A stretch of DNA of 6,523 bases. Origin: a virus. Its lineage: Duplodnaviria; Heunggongvirae; Uroviricota; Caudoviricetes. Shown here piece by piece: positions 1 through 6,523 of the stretch. The notes beneath the pieces are model-generated. The model was not told the DNA's origin. It saw only the letters and a list, made by a program, of their open reading frames with translations, and made no database searches. The stretch lies in IMG/VR virus record IMGVR_UViG_2663762945_000006, positions 1 through 6,523 of that record, one strand, 5' to 3'. The translations under genes and the position numbers were made by a program. How positions within the stretch are numbered: the first letter of the stretch is position 1; every line of letters starts with the position of its first letter.

Positions 1-54
1 ATATAGTTAGAGCAATAACATTACCCAGGCGTTCTGGCGTAGACGATTATTCGA

Positions 55-1642
<1,588 letters not shown>

Positions 1643-1868
1643 TCATTTCCCCTTAACGCCGGGGTAGCGGAACAAAAACCTGCTGCATAGTTATTAAAGT
1701 CGAACCCTGCCATCATGTTCTTACGCCTCGGGCTGGCTACTTAACCCCTGACCACTGCCTGGTAACTCGAAGTATTGCCTGGCGTTCTGTGGGGCGGGGT
1801 GGGTTGATGAAATAATGATGCACTTTTAAAGTTATGATGTCAACACTTATAAAGTTAGCTTTTGATCA

Positions 1869-1896
1869 ATAAAAACCGCCTCGTGTGAAGCGGTTC
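1869..1896 (-). terminator. Rho-independent terminator downstream of the parE-like gene
   Basis: Minus-strand RNA would read CCGCUUC-ACAC-GAGGCGG (7-bp stem with one G-U pair, 4-nt loop) followed by UUUUUAUU. On the plus strand the same hairpin is not followed by a U tract. Lies 16 nt downstream of the parE stop (1912-1914). Confidence 0.6.
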
Positions 1897-1911
1897 TGCG
1901 AAAAAAGAGGA

Positions 1912-2193
1912 TTATCCAGGAAATTGTCGTCTGGAGTGGGTGACACTTACTATTTCAACACTCGAAGCGGCTACACGGTACAGAATGATATAGTTAGGAT
2001 GAGCTACAATCTCACGCAAGCCAAACGCTCTGTCGCTTGATGGGTATAAGTACGGATGTTCAGATAAAGCTAAAACACATGTCTCAATGCGAATCTTTAG
2101 CCTGCGTGCGGCATGGAGATTTTCTTTTGCAATATAGGCTACGATCTGACGTAAATCATCACGTGCAGAAGGTAGCCATAAAATGGGCAGCAT
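1912..2193 (-). CDS. parE2: Type II toxin, ParE/RelE superfamily (93 aa), third gene of a paaR-paaA-parE-type three-component TA operon
   Basis: MLPILWLPSARDDLRQIVAYIAKENLHAARRLKIRIETCVLALSEHPYLYPSSDRAFGLREIVAHPNYIILYRV...VEIVSVTHSRR has the ParE-like pattern (W.P.A..DL..I..YIA..N...A.R......) and the C-terminal (E)I(V/L)(S/R)V.H motif. The ATG overlaps the antitoxin stop (TAATG). SD-like GGGAG about 6 nt upstream. Paralog number (parE1 versus parE2) cannot be decided from sequence alone. Confidence 0.8.
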   Translation of the reverse strand: MLPILWLPSARDDLRQIVAYIAKENLHAARRLKIRIETCVLALSEHPYLYPSSDRAFGLREIVAHPNYIILYRVAASSVEIVSVTHSRRQFPG

Positions 2194-2384
2194 TACACAC
2201 TCCCGCTAGTCGCAGCAATTTGGGCAATGAGATTTTCCATTTCTGCCATTACATCATCATGAGGAATTGCAGGGCGCGGATCTGCAAGATTTGCAGCTAC
2301 TTTTGCACGTAGCCATTCGTTGTAATTATTTTCTTGCTCAACGGTTTCAAACTCAGAAACCATCGGCGAAAGGGCAGTGTTCAT
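2193..2384 (-). CDS. paaA2: Type II antitoxin, PaaA2-like (63 aa), partner of the ParE toxin
   Basis: MNTALSPMVSEFETVEQENNYNEWLRAKVAANLADPRPAIPHDDVMAEMENLIAQIAATSGSV. Length 63 aa and the ...NEWLRAKV... motif match my recollection of the PaaA2 antitoxin of E. coli O157:H7. Start chosen at the internal ATG (2382-2384) because a perfect AGGAGG lies 6 nt upstream; the longer 84-aa ORF (to 2447) has no RBS and overlaps the upstream gene. Confidence 0.75.
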   Translation of the reverse strand: MNTALSPMVSEFETVEQENNYNEWLRAKVAANLADPRPAIPHDDVMAEMENLIAQIAATSGSV

Positions 2385-2413
2385 AACATACCTCCTTTGG
2401 CTTATGATGTAGA

Positions 2414-2821
2414 CTATGCTCGGTGCCCTTTCTGGGCAGCGAGCCATCTTGCAACAGTGCGCTCCATTGATTCTTTTTTGTCTTTCATGTCTTTAAGCAT
2501 TTTTTCTTGATCTTCCTCTGGAAATGCTCCGAATGTTTGAAGCAGTTCCATTTGCCTGGGGCCTATTTTCATAGTATCTGGCACCACAACCTGCTCTTCT
2601 TCGTTTGGCGGTAACATAAACCAATATGGGGGATAACCCGTTACTTCAGAAAGTTTATCAAGATTAGCTGTTGATGGACTTGTGATTCCGTGAACCCACT
2701 TTTGTACCGATTGCTGGGCAACACCAATCCTGCGGGCTAGTTCTGCCTGCTTAAGTCCTGTTTTTTCCAGTACCAATTTTATTCGGTACGTGGTTATTTC
2801 AAGGGTGGTCATTCGCTTCAT
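2414..2821 (-). CDS. paaR2: XRE-family HTH transcriptional regulator (135 aa), PaaR2-like; occupies the CI-repressor position of the prophage switch; no S24 peptidase domain
   Basis: N-terminal HTH: ...LEKTGLKQAELARRIGVAQQSVQKWVHGITSPSTANLDKLSEVTGYP... The C-terminal about 60 aa are acidic/lysine-rich with no Ala-Gly/Ser-Lys peptidase signature. Divergent from the Cro-like gene across a 107-bp promoter region, and immediately upstream of and co-oriented with the antitoxin-toxin pair. Start could be ATG at 2821 (probably leaderless) or the in-frame ATG at 2812. Confidence 0.75.
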   Translation of the reverse strand: MKRMTTLEITTYRIKLVLEKTGLKQAELARRIGVAQQSVQKWVHGITSPSTANLDKLSEVTGYPPYWFMLPPNEEEQVVVPDTMKIGPRQMELLQTFGAFPEEDQEKMLKDMKDKKESMERTVARWLAAQKGHRA

Positions 2822-2928
2822 GCATTCATTTTACATAAAAAAAGTGTAACTAGCACAATCAGCTTAAAGGTGTTGATAAACTAACTTTAAAAGTGTATAA
2901 ATCATGGTGATTCACTGGAGATAACGAT
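2822..2928. promoter_or_regulatory. Divergent promoter/operator region between the paaR2-like repressor and Cro-like ydaS
   Basis: Plus-strand candidate promoter: -35 TTGATA (2873-2878), about 17-bp spacer, TG-extended -10 (TGtATAAAT, 2894-2902), SD GGAG (2917-2920), ATG at 2929. Short symmetric elements: TTACA-N9-TGTAA (2831-2849), ACTTT-a-AAAGT (2884-2894), AATCA-tgg-TGATT (2900-2912). The repressor gene starts at the region edge with no obvious SD, consistent with a leaderless transcript. Confidence 0.5.
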
Positions 2929-3195
2929 ATGCATGAATGTTTAAAAAATAAAATTCACCAAAGAGGGTTATCCCAAGCAGGTATTGCTCGTTTGATTGGA
3001 TTACCGCAACAGGTTGTGTCTCGATGGGCTAATGGTCAGCAGGTCCCTGCATCAAGGGTTCTGCAACTTTGTGAGATTATGGCGTGGGAGGTTACCCCCC
3101 ACGAACTCCGACCTGATATTTATCCTAACCCAACAGACGGCTTGCCTGCTGAGTTTCAGACTAGCACACAGCCAGCGACGGGAGTTGATTCATGA
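2929..3195 (+). CDS. ydaS: Cro-like HTH protein, YdaS family (88 aa)
   Basis: MHECLKNKIHQRGLSQAGIARLIGLPQQVVSRWANGQQVPASRVLQLCEIMAWEVTPHELRPDIYPNP...; HTH plus the ELRPDI motif typical of YdaS/Cro-like prophage proteins. Its stop overlaps the ydaT start (ATGA, 3192-3195). Confidence 0.75.
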   Translation: MHECLKNKIHQRGLSQAGIARLIGLPQQVVSRWANGQQVPASRVLQLCEIMAWEVTPHELRPDIYPNPTDGLPAEFQTSTQPATGVDS

Positions 3196-3617
3196 AAATC
3201 AAGCATGAGCACATCCGCATGGCGATGAATGCCTGGGCATATCCTGACGGTGAGAAGGTGCCAGCTGCTGCTATTGCCAGAGCGTATTTTGAACTGGGGA
3301 TGACATATCCCGAGTTGCACAACGACGACAGGCACAACGCGCTCTATCTCAACACCCAAAAGATTTTCCGTTGGCTGGATAAAGACACTCCTGATGCTGT
3401 TGAGAAAATTCAGGCATTGTTACCGGCGATCGAAAGGGCAATGCCACCTCCGCTGGTAGCCCGAATGCGCAGCCACAGTTCCGCTTATTTTCGGGAGCTG
3501 GTGGAGACGCAGGAACGGCTAGTGAAAGATATCGATGATTTCGTTGCATCAGCGATCGTTCTGTTCGACCAGATGAATCGTGGTGGTCCGGCGGGTAATT
3601 CCGTGGCTGTGCATTGA
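3192..3617 (+). CDS. ydaT: YdaT-family protein (141 aa), proposed CII-like regulator / former 'toxin YdaT'
   Basis: MKIKHEHIRMAMNAWAYPDGEKVPAAAIARAYFELGMTYPELHND...; matches my recollection of Rac-prophage YdaT (about 140 aa, same N-terminus). SD-like GGGAG 7 nt upstream. Translationally coupled to ydaS. Confidence 0.75.
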   Translation: MKIKHEHIRMAMNAWAYPDGEKVPAAAIARAYFELGMTYPELHNDDRHNALYLNTQKIFRWLDKDTPDAVEKIQALLPAIERAMPPPLVARMRSHSSAYFRELVETQERLVKDIDDFVASAIVLFDQMNRGGPAGNSVAVH

Positions 3618-3688
3618 CTGAAAATATTTATACCGGATCGCTTCCGGCAATTCGTGAGTAAAAAGATTCGGTCTCAGAAGAGGTGAGT

Positions 3689-4729
3689 ATGGCTAATGCC
3701 TGGCTCAGATTATGGCATGACATGCCAAATGACCCTAAGTGGCGAACAATTTCCAGGGTGTCAGGACAGCCAATCGCAACAGTGATGGCTGTGTATATCC
3801 ACCTTCTGGTGAGCGCGTCACGAAATGTCACGACATGTCACGGCGTGTCACTACGTGGTCACATTGATGTCACAACGGAAGATTTAGCAAGTGCACTTGA
3901 TGTGACGGAAGAAGTAATTGATTCAATTTTGCAGGCGATGCAGGGGCGGGTGCTTGATGGAGATTTAATCACTGGATGGGAAAAACGCCAGGTAGCGAAA
4001 GAGGATAACGGCAACGTTTCGCAAACCGCGAAATCCCCGGCAGAGCGTAAGAGAGCACAACGCGAGAGGGAAAAATTACGAAAACAGAATGAGGGGTGTC
4101 ACGATGAGTCACGCATATGTCACGACATGTCACTACGAGTCACGACAGATAAAGATACAGATAAAGAATTAAACCCCACACATAACGCGCGCGTGCGCGA
4201 GAGTGCTCCGACCAGTGAATCGAACGGTACGCCGTTGCAGGCAGCGGAACCTGATTACCAGGAAAGCCTGAGCGAACCCATCGGGAAGTTTCCGATGGCC
4301 GATGGCTGGCATCCGTCGCCGGATTTTCGACGGCGGGCTGCACTGTGGGGAGTGGCTCTGCCGGAGCCTGAATTTACACCTGCTGAACTTGCCGCCTTCA
4401 GGGACTACTGGGCAGCTGAGGGGAAAGTTTTTACGCAGGTTCAGTGGGAGCAGAAATTCGCCCGTCACGTAAATCACGTCAGGGCGCAGGTTAAACCAGT
4501 CAGCAAGGGGGTGCGTCATACAGCAGCACCAGGTGGCACCGCATCACGGGCAGTTCGGGAAATTCGGGCAGCACGTGAGCAGTGGGAACGTGAAAACGGA
4601 TTTGTCAGCGACGGAAACGGCGTGGAAGCTGTGGGAGCTCATGGGGGAGGTTTATTCAAACCGCTGGACTCAGAAGAACGGGGCCGCACCTTCGAAGCTC
4701 TGGATTGCCCAGATTGGCGCGATGACTGA
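3689..4729 (+). CDS. Phage replication initiator (lambda O functional analogue) with a DnaT-like C-terminal domain; carries two internal iteron arrays
   Basis: ATG at 3689 with AAGAGG 6 nt upstream (the listed ORF begins at GTG 3683). C-terminal region [62 protein letters not shown] closely parallels the E. coli DnaT C-terminal domain (recalled: [61 protein letters not shown]). The position after the cro/cII-like genes and the internal direct repeats fit an O-like initiator. The last about 65 codons overlap the next gene in another frame, so the true 3' end is uncertain. Confidence 0.7.
3817..3873. repeat. Iteron array 1: six direct copies of GTCAC(G) at 10-11 bp phasing
   Basis: GTCAC begins at 3817, 3827, 3837, 3847, 3858 and 3869 (cgTCACGaaatGTCACGacatGTCACGgcgtGTCACTacgtgGTCACAttgatGTCACA). 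An inverted copy GTGAC lies at 3902-3906. Inside the O-like CDS (codons ~43-62). Confidence 0.75.
4097..4167. repeat. Iteron array 2 (five GTCAC(G) copies at 10-11 bp phasing) plus a tandem 12-bp A-rich duplication; candidate replication origin
   Basis: GTCAC at 4098, 4108, 4119, 4129 and 4139. The 17-mer ATGTCACGACATGTCAC is shared with array 1 (3825-3841 and 4117-4133). Followed immediately by ACAGATAAAGAt ACAGATAAAGAa (4145-4167), an AT-rich stretch, and then a (CG)-rich tract at 4184-4199. Confidence 0.7.
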
Positions 4730-5183
4730 ACAGCAAATCAGGCTGGTCTGCCGTCAGTGCATGGACCGCTGCCGGGCGGGTGAAACGTGGCCCCCGGACC
4801 TGGCTGAGTTTGTTGCGCTGATTTCGGAGAGTGGGGCAAATCCATTTGGTCTTACGGTGGATGCCGTGATGGAAGAGTACCGGCGCTGGCGCAATGAATC
4901 CTGGCGGTACGACGGGAGTGATAAATACCCGTGGCCACAGCCTGTGCTGTACCACATTTGCCTCGAGATGCGCACCAGAGGGATTGAACGTCAGATGACT
5001 GAAAGTGAGCTGAAACGACTTGCAGAACGACTGTTGACCAAATGGGCAAAGAATGTTGGTAACGGCATGAGTGTTCCGCCAGTGCGACGACAACTGGAAG
5101 GGCCAAAACACCCGCCAGGGCCAACGCCAATTGAGTTACTGAAACAGGAATATGAGCGCCGGAAAGCGGCTGGTTTTGTCTGA
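4533..5183 (+). CDS. Lambda P-like replication protein (helicase loader), about 180-216 aa depending on start
   Basis: C-terminal half ...[40 protein letters not shown]... parallels lambda P (recalled: ...AESYPWKSNAHYWLVTNLYQNMRANALTDAELRRKAADEL...), and ...[11 protein letters not shown]...[10 protein letters not shown] parallels lambda ...GITTMEQVNAG...SPGQFVAW. Start is ambiguous: GTG 4533, GTG 4575, GTG 4590 or ATG 4641, none with a strong SD. The frame is open from 4473. An ATG at 4722 overlaps the O-like stop (ATGACTGA) but would remove conserved N-terminal residues. Confidence 0.65.
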
Positions 5184-5216
5184 ATTTGAGAAATGATTTT
5201 GTCGGAGGAAATTTTA

Positions 5217-5930
5217 ATGGAAACCGTTTTTGACGCACTGAAAGCACTGAAAAGAGCCTCTTCACAGGAGGTGTCGGCCCGCCTTGGAATCAGCCGCGAA
5301 GATGCTGTCAACGAGCTGTGGAAGCTGAAACGCCGTGGTGAAGCAGATAACAAGGGGTCGATGTGGTGGCTGACGATTGAGGCAACTGAAATGGTCACAA
5401 AAACCACTGCGGAGATGCTGATTAACTCAATTGAACAGCATGGTCCTCAGTCGGCTGACGAACTGGCGTTAATGTTCGGGATTACCTCCCGCCGGGCGAA
5501 TTCAACGCTGGCAATGGCAATAAGCAAAGGTCGTCTGATTCGAGTAAATCAGAACGGTAAATTTCGTTACTGCCTGTCGGGCGATAATTTACCAGCAGAG
5601 CCGAAAGCTGCATCGGTAACGGAAACTGCTGGTAAAGCCTTTCCTCAGACAGCAGGTGTTGCGTTACCAGTCCGGGAAGCGGAAACACAGGAAGAAATTA
5701 AAACTGAAAGTGTGGCGGTCACAGTGCAGTCACAGCCGTCGTTCACCAGAAAGCATCCGGATAGTCTGATTTTACCATCGCTGCATGTGGCTAACCGCGA
5801 ACTGCGCCGGGCAAAAGGTCAGGTTCAGAAGTGGGAGCGAGTCTGTGCTGCGCTGCGTGAGCTGAACAAGCACCAGGATATTGTTCGACAGATTGTCGAT
5901 TCCTCCAGTCGTATTGTGTCGGAAAAGTGA
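5217..5930 (+). CDS. Hypothetical prophage protein (237 aa) with two winged-helix-like segments
   Basis: ATG at 5217 preceded by GGAGG (5204-5208, 8-nt spacer); the listed ORF starts at an upstream ATG (5193) that lacks an RBS. Segments ...[28 protein letters not shown]... and ...[35 protein letters not shown]... look like winged-helix DNA-binding motifs. No family recognised from memory. Confidence 0.6.
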
Positions 5931-5945
5931 TTGCCGGAGGTACTT

Positions 5946-6338
5946 ATGGCAAGAGTATTTACACAGGAAGAGCGGGAAGAAGTGAAGGCGCGCATTGTGG
6001 AATTCGTGCGCCTGAGCGGACGAGAAACTTTTCGACAACTGGCAGATAAAACGGGTGTCAGTAAGACCGCTATTCGTCGTTTATCTGGTGCGCTTGCGGC
6101 CAGTGGTGATGTCTGGCTCTCTGATTGCGGGGTATTTCCATCAGAGCAGGCGTATCGCGTATGGCGTAAGACACCGGAGAAGGCTGCTGACCCGACACTG
6201 ATTCGAAAGTTACCTGACGGAGAAATACGTCGTTACAACAGATGGCAGAACATAATTTGTCGTGAGTGCCGCCAGAGCGAGGTTATGCAGCGTGTGCTGG
6301 CGTTCTATCGGGGAAACTTTCAGGAGGTGATGGAGTGA
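5946..6338 (+). CDS. Hypothetical prophage protein (130 aa) with an N-terminal HTH-like segment
   Basis: ATG at 5946 with GGAGG (5936-5940) 5 nt upstream; the listed ORF starts at 5931. Segment ...GRETFRQLADKTGVSKTAIRRLSGALAASGDV... is HTH-like. Stop TGA at 6336-6338 overlaps the next start (GTGA). Confidence 0.55.
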   Translation: MARVFTQEEREEVKARIVEFVRLSGRETFRQLADKTGVSKTAIRRLSGALAASGDVWLSDCGVFPSEQAYRVWRKTPEKAADPTLIRKLPDGEIRRYNRWQNIICRECRQSEVMQRVLAFYRGNFQEVME

Positions 6339-6523
6339 GGGTGAGAGTTTATATTGCCGGTCCAATGACGGGATATGAAAATTTCAACCGTGAGGCGTTT
6401 CACAAGGCGGAAGAGGAACTGAAACGGGAAGGGCATACCGTCTTAAACCCGGCAGTACTTCCGGACGGGCTGACACAGCCGCACTACATGGATATTTGCA
6501 TGGCAATGATTCGTTGTGTGGAT
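6335..6523 (+). CDS. DUF4406-family protein (nucleoside 2-deoxyribosyltransferase-like fold), 5' part only; runs off the window end
   Basis: Translation (V)RVRVYIAGPMTGYENFNREAFHKAEEELKREGHTVLNPAVLPDGLTQPHYMDICMAMIRCVD has the characteristic (K/R)(I/V)YIAGPMTG...N...F N-terminus of DUF4406 proteins. GTG start at 6335 with AGGAGG at 6322-6327 (7-nt spacer); alternative GTG at 6341. Not in the ORF track because no stop falls within the window. Confidence 0.7.
   Translation, partial: MRVRVYIAGPMTGYENFNREAFHKAEEELKREGHTVLNPAVLPDGLTQPHYMDICMAMIRCVD

Follow-up and report, generated by a model that had tools for sequence, protein, structure and literature searches.

A probable two-part iteron-type replication origin within a prophage initiator gene

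The window analysed here is a 6,523-nucleotide stretch of viral DNA (Caudoviricetes; IMG/VR record IMGVR_UViG_2663762945_000006, positions 1 to 6,523), in which one gene carries two arrays of a short, directly repeated word within its own coding sequence. The arrangement raises the question of whether the repeats are kept for the peptides that they encode or as sites in the DNA, and, if they are sites, which protein reads them and for what process.

The initiator gene and its protein

Regarding the gene that carries the arrays, it is labelled in RefSeq as 'DnaT-like ssDNA-binding domain-containing protein', and NCBI uses either this name or 'phage replisome organizer' for its relatives. The gene, its parts and its downstream neighbour are as follows.

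3689..4729, + strand: replication initiator gene, an ORF of 346 aa (predicted N-terminal winged helix, basic helix, disordered linker and C-terminal DnaT-like domain)
3689..3988, + strand: part coding for the predicted N-terminal winged-helix domain, residues 1-100
4037..4093, + strand: part coding for a basic helix, residues 117-135, just upstream of array 2 (model, low confidence)
4289..4489, + strand: part coding for the DnaT-like ssDNA-binding domain, residues 201-267 (Pfam PF17948, E 6.5e-18)
4722..5183, + strand: lambda-P-like helicase loader gene (Pfam PF06992, E 1.5e-15; PHROG 109 'P-like helicase loader'; RefSeq 'replication protein P')

Upstream lie a Cro-like YdaS gene (2929-3195) and then a YdaT gene (3192-3617) in the cII position, and downstream the ATG of the P-like gene at 4722 overlaps the initiator stop (ATGACTGA). 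Being placed after a cII-like gene and before a P-like gene, the initiator gene occupies the position of lambda O. The protein matches PHROG 3729/1408 'replication initiation protein', to which the PHROGs assign residues 1-170; weaker PHROG matches are 'DnaD-like helicase loader' (E 1.1e-7) and 'replisome organizer' (E 7.4e-6 and 4.1e-4). Pfam detects the DnaT domain alone (residues 201-267) in the whole protein, and no Pfam family was found for residues 1-170 even at E <= 10. Phage_rep_O, the lambda O family, gave no match with the whole protein at E <= 0.01 or with residues 1-170 at E <= 10, and Pfam Phage_rep_org_N did not match the initiator either. Homology to lambda O was rejected because the N-terminal domain falls outside Phage_rep_O and every other Pfam family, so that the term 'O-like' used in the first-pass annotation holds for function and gene position and does not extend to sequence. 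Identity with full-length DnaT was rejected as well, since NCBIfam PRK02854 scored 98 bits, below its cut-off of 201, and the match is confined to residues 191-270. DnaT chains in the PDB match the C-terminal domain with weak E-values, and no PDB sequence relative was found over the N-terminal part.

In the AlphaFold2 model, residues ~1-100 fold confidently (block-mean pLDDT of 87-94 for residues 11-40 and 61-90) around a low-confidence loop at residues 48-55 (pLDDT below 50). A helix follows at residues 117-135 (block-mean pLDDT of 53, 70 and 51 across residues 111-140), and residues 136-170 are disordered (pLDDT below 50). Foldseek matches of the model in the PDB are weak (E > 0.5), the majority being winged-helix proteins, and the prediction for the N-terminal domain is a winged helix similar to the N-terminal domain of DnaD and to a RepA_N initiator.

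Two phased arrays and their conservation as DNA

The repeats and the features derived from them are listed below.

3817..3873, + strand: candidate iteron array 1, six direct GTCAC(G) copies; encodes residues 43-62 (helix end, loop, short strand)
3833..3853, + strand: 21-bp in-frame expansion with two extra copies, residues 49-55 (TCHGVSL), from the protein alignment against four-copy alleles
3902..3906, - strand: single inverted copy (GTGAC on the + strand), 33 bp past the last direct copy of array 1
4098..4143, + strand: candidate iteron array 2, five direct GTCAC(G) copies at 10/11/10/10 bp; encodes disordered linker, residues 137-152

The model regions given above place array 1 inside the part coding for the folded domain and array 2 in the part coding for the linker. 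On the + strand, GTCAC starts at 3817, 3827, 3837, 3847, 3858 and 3869 in array 1 (spacing 10/10/10/11/11 bp, mean 10.4) and at 4098, 4108, 4119, 4129 and 4139 in array 2; the last copy in array 1 and the first in array 2 are 229 bp apart. The six phased copies described for array 1 by the first-pass annotation were thus found again with the same positions and spacing, and its statement that the repeats are translated agrees with the reading of the array 1 stretch as residues 46-63 of the ORF. The 17-mer that it reported as common to both clusters was located as ATGTCACGACATGTCAC at 3825-3841 in array 1 and 4117-4133 in array 2 (offset 292 bp). Tandem Repeats Finder returned period 10 for both arrays, with the call for array 1 covering 3817-3862, and 11 of the 17 + strand copies of GTCAC in the window fall within the two arrays. 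The inverted copy recurs at the same offset in most GTCAC-type relatives, where codon V72 is GTG in 20/21.

Chance is excluded for array 1, in line with the earlier claim, because six copies in 57 bp were never reached in 1000 dinucleotide-preserving shuffles of the window when any 5-mer in any 57-bp span of one strand was counted; the largest count was three in 909 shuffles, four in 88 and five in one. A scan of 2800-4800 detected no promoter-like site within the initiator gene. Terminator-like matches in the same scan occur only on the minus strand, within the CG-rich stretch 4177-4199, where they do not clearly outnumber those of shuffles. With both results, an internal promoter or terminator at the arrays was rejected.

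Repeats inside a gene may reflect the protein alone, either because the peptide SRNVT..RGH..VT is needed or because neutral slippage produced them, and the invariance of S44, V47, T48, R56, G57, H58, V61 and T62 in the protein alignment speaks for such a coding-only origin. The nucleotides argue otherwise. The GTCAC copies use all three codon phases (2, 0, 1, 2, 1, 0 in array 1 and 1, 2, 1, 2, 0 in array 2), so that one DNA word is read as S-R, V-T, C-H or G-H and gives different residues in three frames; the same word recurs in the disordered linker. Codon usage was compared in a codon alignment of 19 non-redundant relatives which, like the others, came from genomes and viral contigs; the positions compared were those of invariant residues whose codons are at least four-fold degenerate. 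Inside the motif (n=5), the commonest codon has a mean frequency of 0.97, against 0.47 outside it (n=20; one-sided Mann-Whitney p = 0.001). Inside the motif, S44 is TCA in 18/19 and V47, G57 and V61 are GTC, GGT and GTC in 19/19 each, whereas V32 outside the motif is encoded by GTG in 5, GTT in 7, GTC in 6 and GTA in 1 of the 19 relatives. Synonymous third positions are thus frozen inside the motif only. Recent common ancestry is an unlikely source of the freeze, because the starting set of 23 sequences has a median pairwise nucleotide identity of 0.68.

The same alignment extends the word. As T48 is ACG in 19/19 and T62 is ACG in 18/19, the core reaches to GTCACG, and in a count matrix of 147 copies from the 19 non-redundant relatives the sixth position is G in 82-84%, while the spacer is unconserved in both arrays. 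The array built on GTCAC(G) in the earlier description is real, and its conserved core is corrected to the 6-mer GTCACG; in array 1 of the window, only three of the six copies have the sixth-position G.

Successive copies in the relatives are 10 or 11 bp apart in 106/109 cases. In phage Evi and an Aeromonas phage, GTCAC is found at matching places in the gene (nt 129/139/149/160 and ~380-430), as it is in Rahnella, Serratia, Pseudomonas, Bordetella, Chromobacterium, Acidovorax, Gilvimarinus and other genomes, which carries the conservation down to ~58% protein identity across several gamma- and betaproteobacterial genera. The first-pass annotation had interpreted array 1 as helically phased iterons of the initiator-binding type, and the repeats and phasing kept in relatives, together with the frozen synonymous sites, support that interpretation. 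It had also named, as an observation that would speak against the idea, relatives in which the protein is kept and the repeat phasing is lost; the phasing proved to be kept, and the idea survived. Taken with the replacement of the word in both places at once in other sub-families, described below, and with the tolerance of the structured domain for a seven-residue, low-confidence insert made by two extra repeats, these data leave the peptide or slippage origin extremely improbable. The codon phases and the frozen synonymous sites reject the coding-only account: the arrays are selected at the DNA level, beyond what coding requires.

The insert also marks natural variation in copy number. The Evi and Aeromonas phage alleles have four copies in array 1; among the 80 closest IMG/VR contigs, the six-copy pattern was found in 74, a six-copy pattern with one copy mutated in 2, and four copies in 4. 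Residues 49-55, which the expansion adds, fall in the low-confidence loop, and a similar insert occurs in a protein (P0124) ~71% identical over residues 1-135. Some lineages (L030, L032 and L039) are without array 1 and keep 1-2 degenerate CGAAYGC copies beside the AT-rich block that follows array 2, so that array 1 is not essential to the family. In the examined loci, the more constant part is array 2 with the AT block, and array 1 is a common accessory. Inter-array distances in relatives are 211, 219, 227, 229, 231, 238, 239, 247, 278 and 319 bp. The scattered fractional turns of these distances give no support for a fixed helical phase between the arrays, as for a looping geometry, and the idea was dropped.

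Module exchange, dialects and the reader of the word

Directly after array 2, the GC content of the initiator gene reaches its minimum of 0.35 at 4140-4179. The feature concerned is the following.

4145..4175, + strand: AT-rich, purine-rich block (ACAGATAAAGAT twice ...); candidate DNA-unwinding element and module-exchange junction

The block is short (~30 bp) and codes for protein as well; runs of GATAAAGAT or GATACAGAT come after array 2 in several of the relatives examined. BLAST matches to phages fall into two groups. The first covers 3603-4167 and comes from Evi, Tritos and 640R1-type phages, and the second covers 4146-4800 and comes from ydaU of Rac-SA53 and others. The N-terminal group stops at 4167 and the C-terminal group starts at 4146-4168, with the junction sequence ACAGATAAAGATACAGATAAAGA at 4145-4167 inside the GC minimum. 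YdaU of Rac-SA53 is homologous from about residue 160 onward only, its N-terminal half is unrelated, and no phased array was found in it; Rac YdaU was accordingly rejected as an array-bearing relative. By these match boundaries, the two modules have been exchanged by recombination at the 4145-4175 block, and the arrays travel with the N-terminal module. The gene context varies: the initiator is accompanied by a P-like loader gene in the window, by LygF in phage Evi and by genes for helicases both in the Aeromonas phage and in a circular, phage-like Pseudomonas record. What stays with the arrays throughout is only the N-terminal part of the protein that they encode. Plasmids with the initiator gene as sole replicon were also sought; the 11 matches, mostly large E. 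coli records, were not informative. Two of the 11 plasmid matches are 51-kb Pseudomonas circles, and the one examined (CP137943.1) resembles a lambdoid phage genome.

Distant sub-families of the N-terminal domain lack GTCAC and have CGAACGC or GTAACG at both places, again at 10-11 bp spacing. Among loci with at least two copies in each array, arrays 1 and 2 share one 6-mer in 41/41, namely GTCACG in 26, GTAACG in 4 and GAACGC in 11; copies outside the arrays but within the first 330 nt of the gene number at most two per gene and are usually absent. Arrays 1 and 2 therefore change together. A crude UPGMA tree, built from the domain columns that the iterons do not encode, shows the dialects intermingled, and L034 (GTAACG) is closest to L017 (GTCACG) at 85% identity, suggesting that both arrays switched together more than once. 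Peptide signatures of 150 representative proteins point in the same direction and suggest further dialects, in a crude classification that contains one apparent hybrid (P0235). The GTAACG word is barred from codon phase 2 because a TAA stop would arise.

As for the protein that reads the word, the canonical recognition helix is identical in L017 and L034, which differ in dialect. Within residues 1-110, only columns 46, 48 and 58 separate GTCACG-type from CGAACG-type proteins, and all three are iteron-encoded. Specificity residues in the recognition helix were rejected, since no column of this range outside the iteron-encoded residues separates the two types. In a correlation with dialect that is confounded by shared ancestry, the basic helix has the signature xRKRxQR(E/Q) in 23 of the 24 GTCACG loci in which the motif was located; the corresponding position is Y or F in 4/4 GTAACG loci, and W, Y or F in the GAACGC dialect. 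In the protein, the dialect is thus tracked only by the loop residues that array 1 encodes (46, 48 and 58) and by the basic helix encoded just ahead of array 2.

The silence of the recognition helix would also suit a reader other than the initiator, with the arrays bound for regulation or packaging by a host protein or by another protein of the phage, for instance a neighbouring helix-turn-helix protein of the DUF1627 or DUF977 type. This is very unlikely. The neighbouring genes vary among loci that keep the arrays, the arrays are always inside the N-terminal module and are exchanged with it, and the complete 40-kb Evi genome has no other cluster of the motif (clusters of at least three GTCAC within 45 bp are arrays 1 and 2 only). 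A conserved host factor is further disfavoured because the dialect differs between relatives in closely related host groups.

With the initiator as the preferred reader, a more speculative proposal, which we hold to be rather doubtful, is that the iteron site and its reader occupy overlapping or adjacent nucleotides, the reader being the array 1 loop, the basic helix or both. If this were true, a change of the repeat would alter the DNA site and the reading residues together, the initiator family would gain a built-in route to new, mutually incompatible origin specificities, and the presence of a binding-site array inside the coding region of a folded domain would be explained.

A candidate origin and its known counterparts

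Taken together, the GTCACG arrays are probably iterons bound by the initiator of their own gene, which with the AT block at 4145-4175 would form the replication origin of the prophage, a two-part iteron-type origin of a widespread and uncharacterised initiator family; a literature search found no paper on this family. The anatomy resembles that of an origin, as array 2 lies in the part coding for a disordered linker, next to the GC minimum of a gene in the lambda O position. In the model proposed, the initiator would bind as monomers through its N-terminal part (winged helix, perhaps together with the basic helix), arranged head to tail along one face of the DNA with one monomer in each helical turn. 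Array 2 and the adjacent AT-rich block would be the origin core where the duplex opens, the DnaT-like C-terminal domain would hold the single strands, and the P-like protein would deliver the host DnaB helicase. Array 1, ~230 bp upstream in the part coding for the winged helix, would be an auxiliary cluster that raises local initiator occupancy or cooperativity. The array binder, the melting site and the contribution of array 1 are each inferred as in this model. Against this reading stand the closest low-rmsd fold match of the N-terminal domain, that of DnaD, which is known as an oligomerisation module and not as a sequence-specific reader, the recognition helix common to L017 and L034, the lineages that lack array 1, the variable distance between the arrays, and the shortness and coding function of the AT block.

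A different division of labour would make array 2 and the AT block the whole origin and array 1 a control element instead of a positive part of it, for which we see a small probability. Array 1 might then act on the initiator by titration or 'handcuffing', in the manner of the second iteron clusters of P1 (incA) and F, or serve as an autoregulatory, initiator-bound roadblock to transcription and translation through the gene. Array 1 is dispensable in the lineages that keep 1-2 degenerate copies beside the AT block, its copy number is 4 or 6 without loss of the gene, and array 2 alone adjoins the GC minimum, all of which fit a control element. So does the precedent of P1 and F, which have dual iteron clusters with opposite roles: their clusters flank the rep gene, and the second is a locus of negative copy-number control. 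P1 (incC/incA) and F would share with the present locus two separated clusters of one iteron served by one initiator, if the initiator binds as proposed; here, both clusters are within the coding sequence, and a control role of array 1 is a candidate one. We know of no negative copy-number control in the lytic replication of lambdoid phages. Against a control role, most of the family conserves the two arrays with equal strictness, and Stx phages need two extra, weakly bound iterons for efficient replication, where these are not inhibitory (PMC7466680).

The auxiliary role of array 1 within a two-part origin is retained as the preferred reading, and several known systems can be compared with it. 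Like lambda O/P, the locus has its putative origin inside the initiator gene, with iterons and then an AT-rich tract in the linker-coding middle (here array 2), an N-terminal module that moves with its own sites, and a C-terminal part that pairs with a following, stop-overlapping gene for a P-type loader. Lambda iterons are about 19 bp long, internally symmetric and bound by dimers. The present repeats have an asymmetric 6-mer core at 10-11 bp spacing in place of such ~19-bp dyad-symmetric iterons; moreover, the C-terminal domain is DnaT-like and the N-terminal domain has no sequence homology to O. In lambda, one iteron cluster lies inside gene O and is followed by an AT-rich tract (PMC7466680), against two clusters here, as the first-pass annotation correctly noted, one of them in the part coding for a folded domain. 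The iteron number varies between relatives in the present family as it does between lambda with 4 and the Stx phages with 6 (PMC7466680).

SPP1 gp38 (G38P) binds direct repeats within gene 38 (oriL), next to an AT-rich unwinding element, and also a second set of repeats, oriR (PMC6316719). Direct repeats inside the own gene of the initiator together with an AT-rich element are common to SPP1 oriL and to this locus, where binding is proposed by analogy, whereas the second site of SPP1 lies about 13 kb away and the second cluster here is in the same gene. The likeness to DnaD-like organizers consists of the predicted winged-helix fold, which resembles the DnaD N-terminal domain, and of the weak PHROG matches to 'replisome organizer' and 'DnaD-like helicase loader' mentioned above. 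In contrast to SPP1 and the organizers of Gram-positive hosts, the hosts here are Proteobacteria, the C-terminal domain and the loader differ, and no Phage_rep_org_N match was obtained. The modelled fold of the N-terminal domain is also similar to that of the RepA_N initiators of Gram-positive plasmids (pSK41 type; PDB 4pta); these serve plasmids and not phages, have a single cluster, and show no detected sequence relationship. PhoB and OmpR are winged-helix proteins that bind direct repeats head to tail with a 10-11 bp periodicity. They offer a mechanistic analogy, in which a short core once per turn would be bound by one winged-helix monomer per turn on one face, and differ in that they regulate transcription from two or a few sites and take no part in replication.

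An origin embedded in the initiator gene is textbook knowledge from lambda, and what is distinct here is the short asymmetric one-turn core, the presence of two clusters and the folded-domain location. The initiator family comprises 1,762 clusters at 50% identity (E <= 0.001), and its members include prophages of E. coli, Shigella, Pseudomonas, Bordetella and Enterobacter. The N-terminal domain occurs in just 24 phage records of GenBank, with no classical model phage among them. For this family, the comparison provides a map of a putative core (array 2 with the AT block), an accessory array, at least three natural dialects of candidate specificity, and variants with 4 and 6 copies. Such a map may be used for annotating prophage origins, for predicting the replication incompatibility of co-resident prophages and for designing orthogonal phage-derived replicons, and the gene provides a clean example of overlapping protein-coding and DNA-site constraints.

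Composition of the window and database records

The window is a patchwork in which positions 1-201, 202-1619 and 1603-6523 differ in origin, and its parts outside the arrays are as follows.

55-267, minus strand: separate 70-aa ORF, assigned to the distinct segment 1-201
202-1619: internal part of pstA-pstC, with 100% identity to numerous E. coli genomes
1603-6523: prophage segment
1912-2193, minus strand: ParE-type toxin gene
2193-2447, minus strand: PaaA2/RelB-type antitoxin gene
2414-2821, minus strand: repressor gene

The pstA-pstC match and the prophage match share 17 bp (1603-1619). No complete E. coli genome carries the pstA-pstC piece, segment 1-201 and the prophage side by side, and in the closest genome the upstream neighbors of the prophage are DUF1391, ydfB and dicB. 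The patchwork is due to a rearrangement or else to chimeric assembly. Regarding the database records, a considerable proportion of the closest initiator-family proteins at NCBI are labeled “partial”, possibly because short-read assemblies are frequently interrupted within the initiator gene, for example where several prophages in one genome have parts of this gene in common. The toxin and antitoxin genes lie directly downstream of the minus-strand repressor gene (i.e., to its left on the window map).

Sequence flanking the iteron arrays

Two features flank the arrays within the initiator gene.

3880-3939: second, milder AT-rich stretch (GC 0.375), after array 1
4186-4199: alternating CG tract of 14 bp, CGCGCGCGTGCGCG, approximately 10 bp past the AT-rich block

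The milder stretch, which includes an inverted GTGAC copy, lies behind array 1 as the AT-rich block lies behind array 2; thus, a dip in GC follows both arrays. The CG tract gives terminator-like matches on the minus strand and is part of the C-terminal module that the initiator gene has in common with Rac-SA53 ydaU. In the lambda origin, a palindrome lies to the right of the AT-rich tract. Elsewhere in the window, two GTCAC copies are present at 5718 and 5729, 11 bp apart, within the DUF1627 gene (5718-5733); as there are only two copies, this pair may be due to chance.

Coding limits and variant relatives

The iteron words, or dialects, of two related loci, L034 (a Marinobacter MAG, GTAACG type) and L017, were compared at gene nt 129-160. 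The C-to-A change from GTCACG to GTAACG is silent (Val) in codon phase 0 and replaces His with Asn in phase 1 (RGH to RGN), whereas GTAACG is barred from phase 2 because a TAA stop would arise. The first array-1 copy, which occupies a phase-2 position, is missing in L034. At the sequence level, this comparison shows that coding restricts the placement of each dialect.

Other relatives show different arrangements. In L024 (Erwinia phyllosphaerae), both arrays (gene nt 160-181 and 412-422) contain CGTCA/GTCACG copies every 5 bp (GTCACGTCACGTCACG), a packing at odds with the binding of a single monomer in each turn of the helix. L040 (a Serratia MAG) and L050 (Pantoea) lack array 1 and retain the N-terminal winged helix, right behind which another repeat, ACTACG(TA), occurs three times (gene nt ~325-370); their C-terminal part is different (YYVYYV..GIS.NPW) and may be a domain of the GIY-YIG or T5orf172 type. 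P0235, a representative protein of the family, combines an array-1 loop peptide of the CGAAC type (NASERGRTE) with a basic helix (AAQRKREQRER) and a linker peptide (MSRDVTQSH) of the GTCAC type. Judged from these peptides, P0235 is an apparent natural hybrid of two dialects and, if real and functional, would be informative on which part of the protein reads which array.
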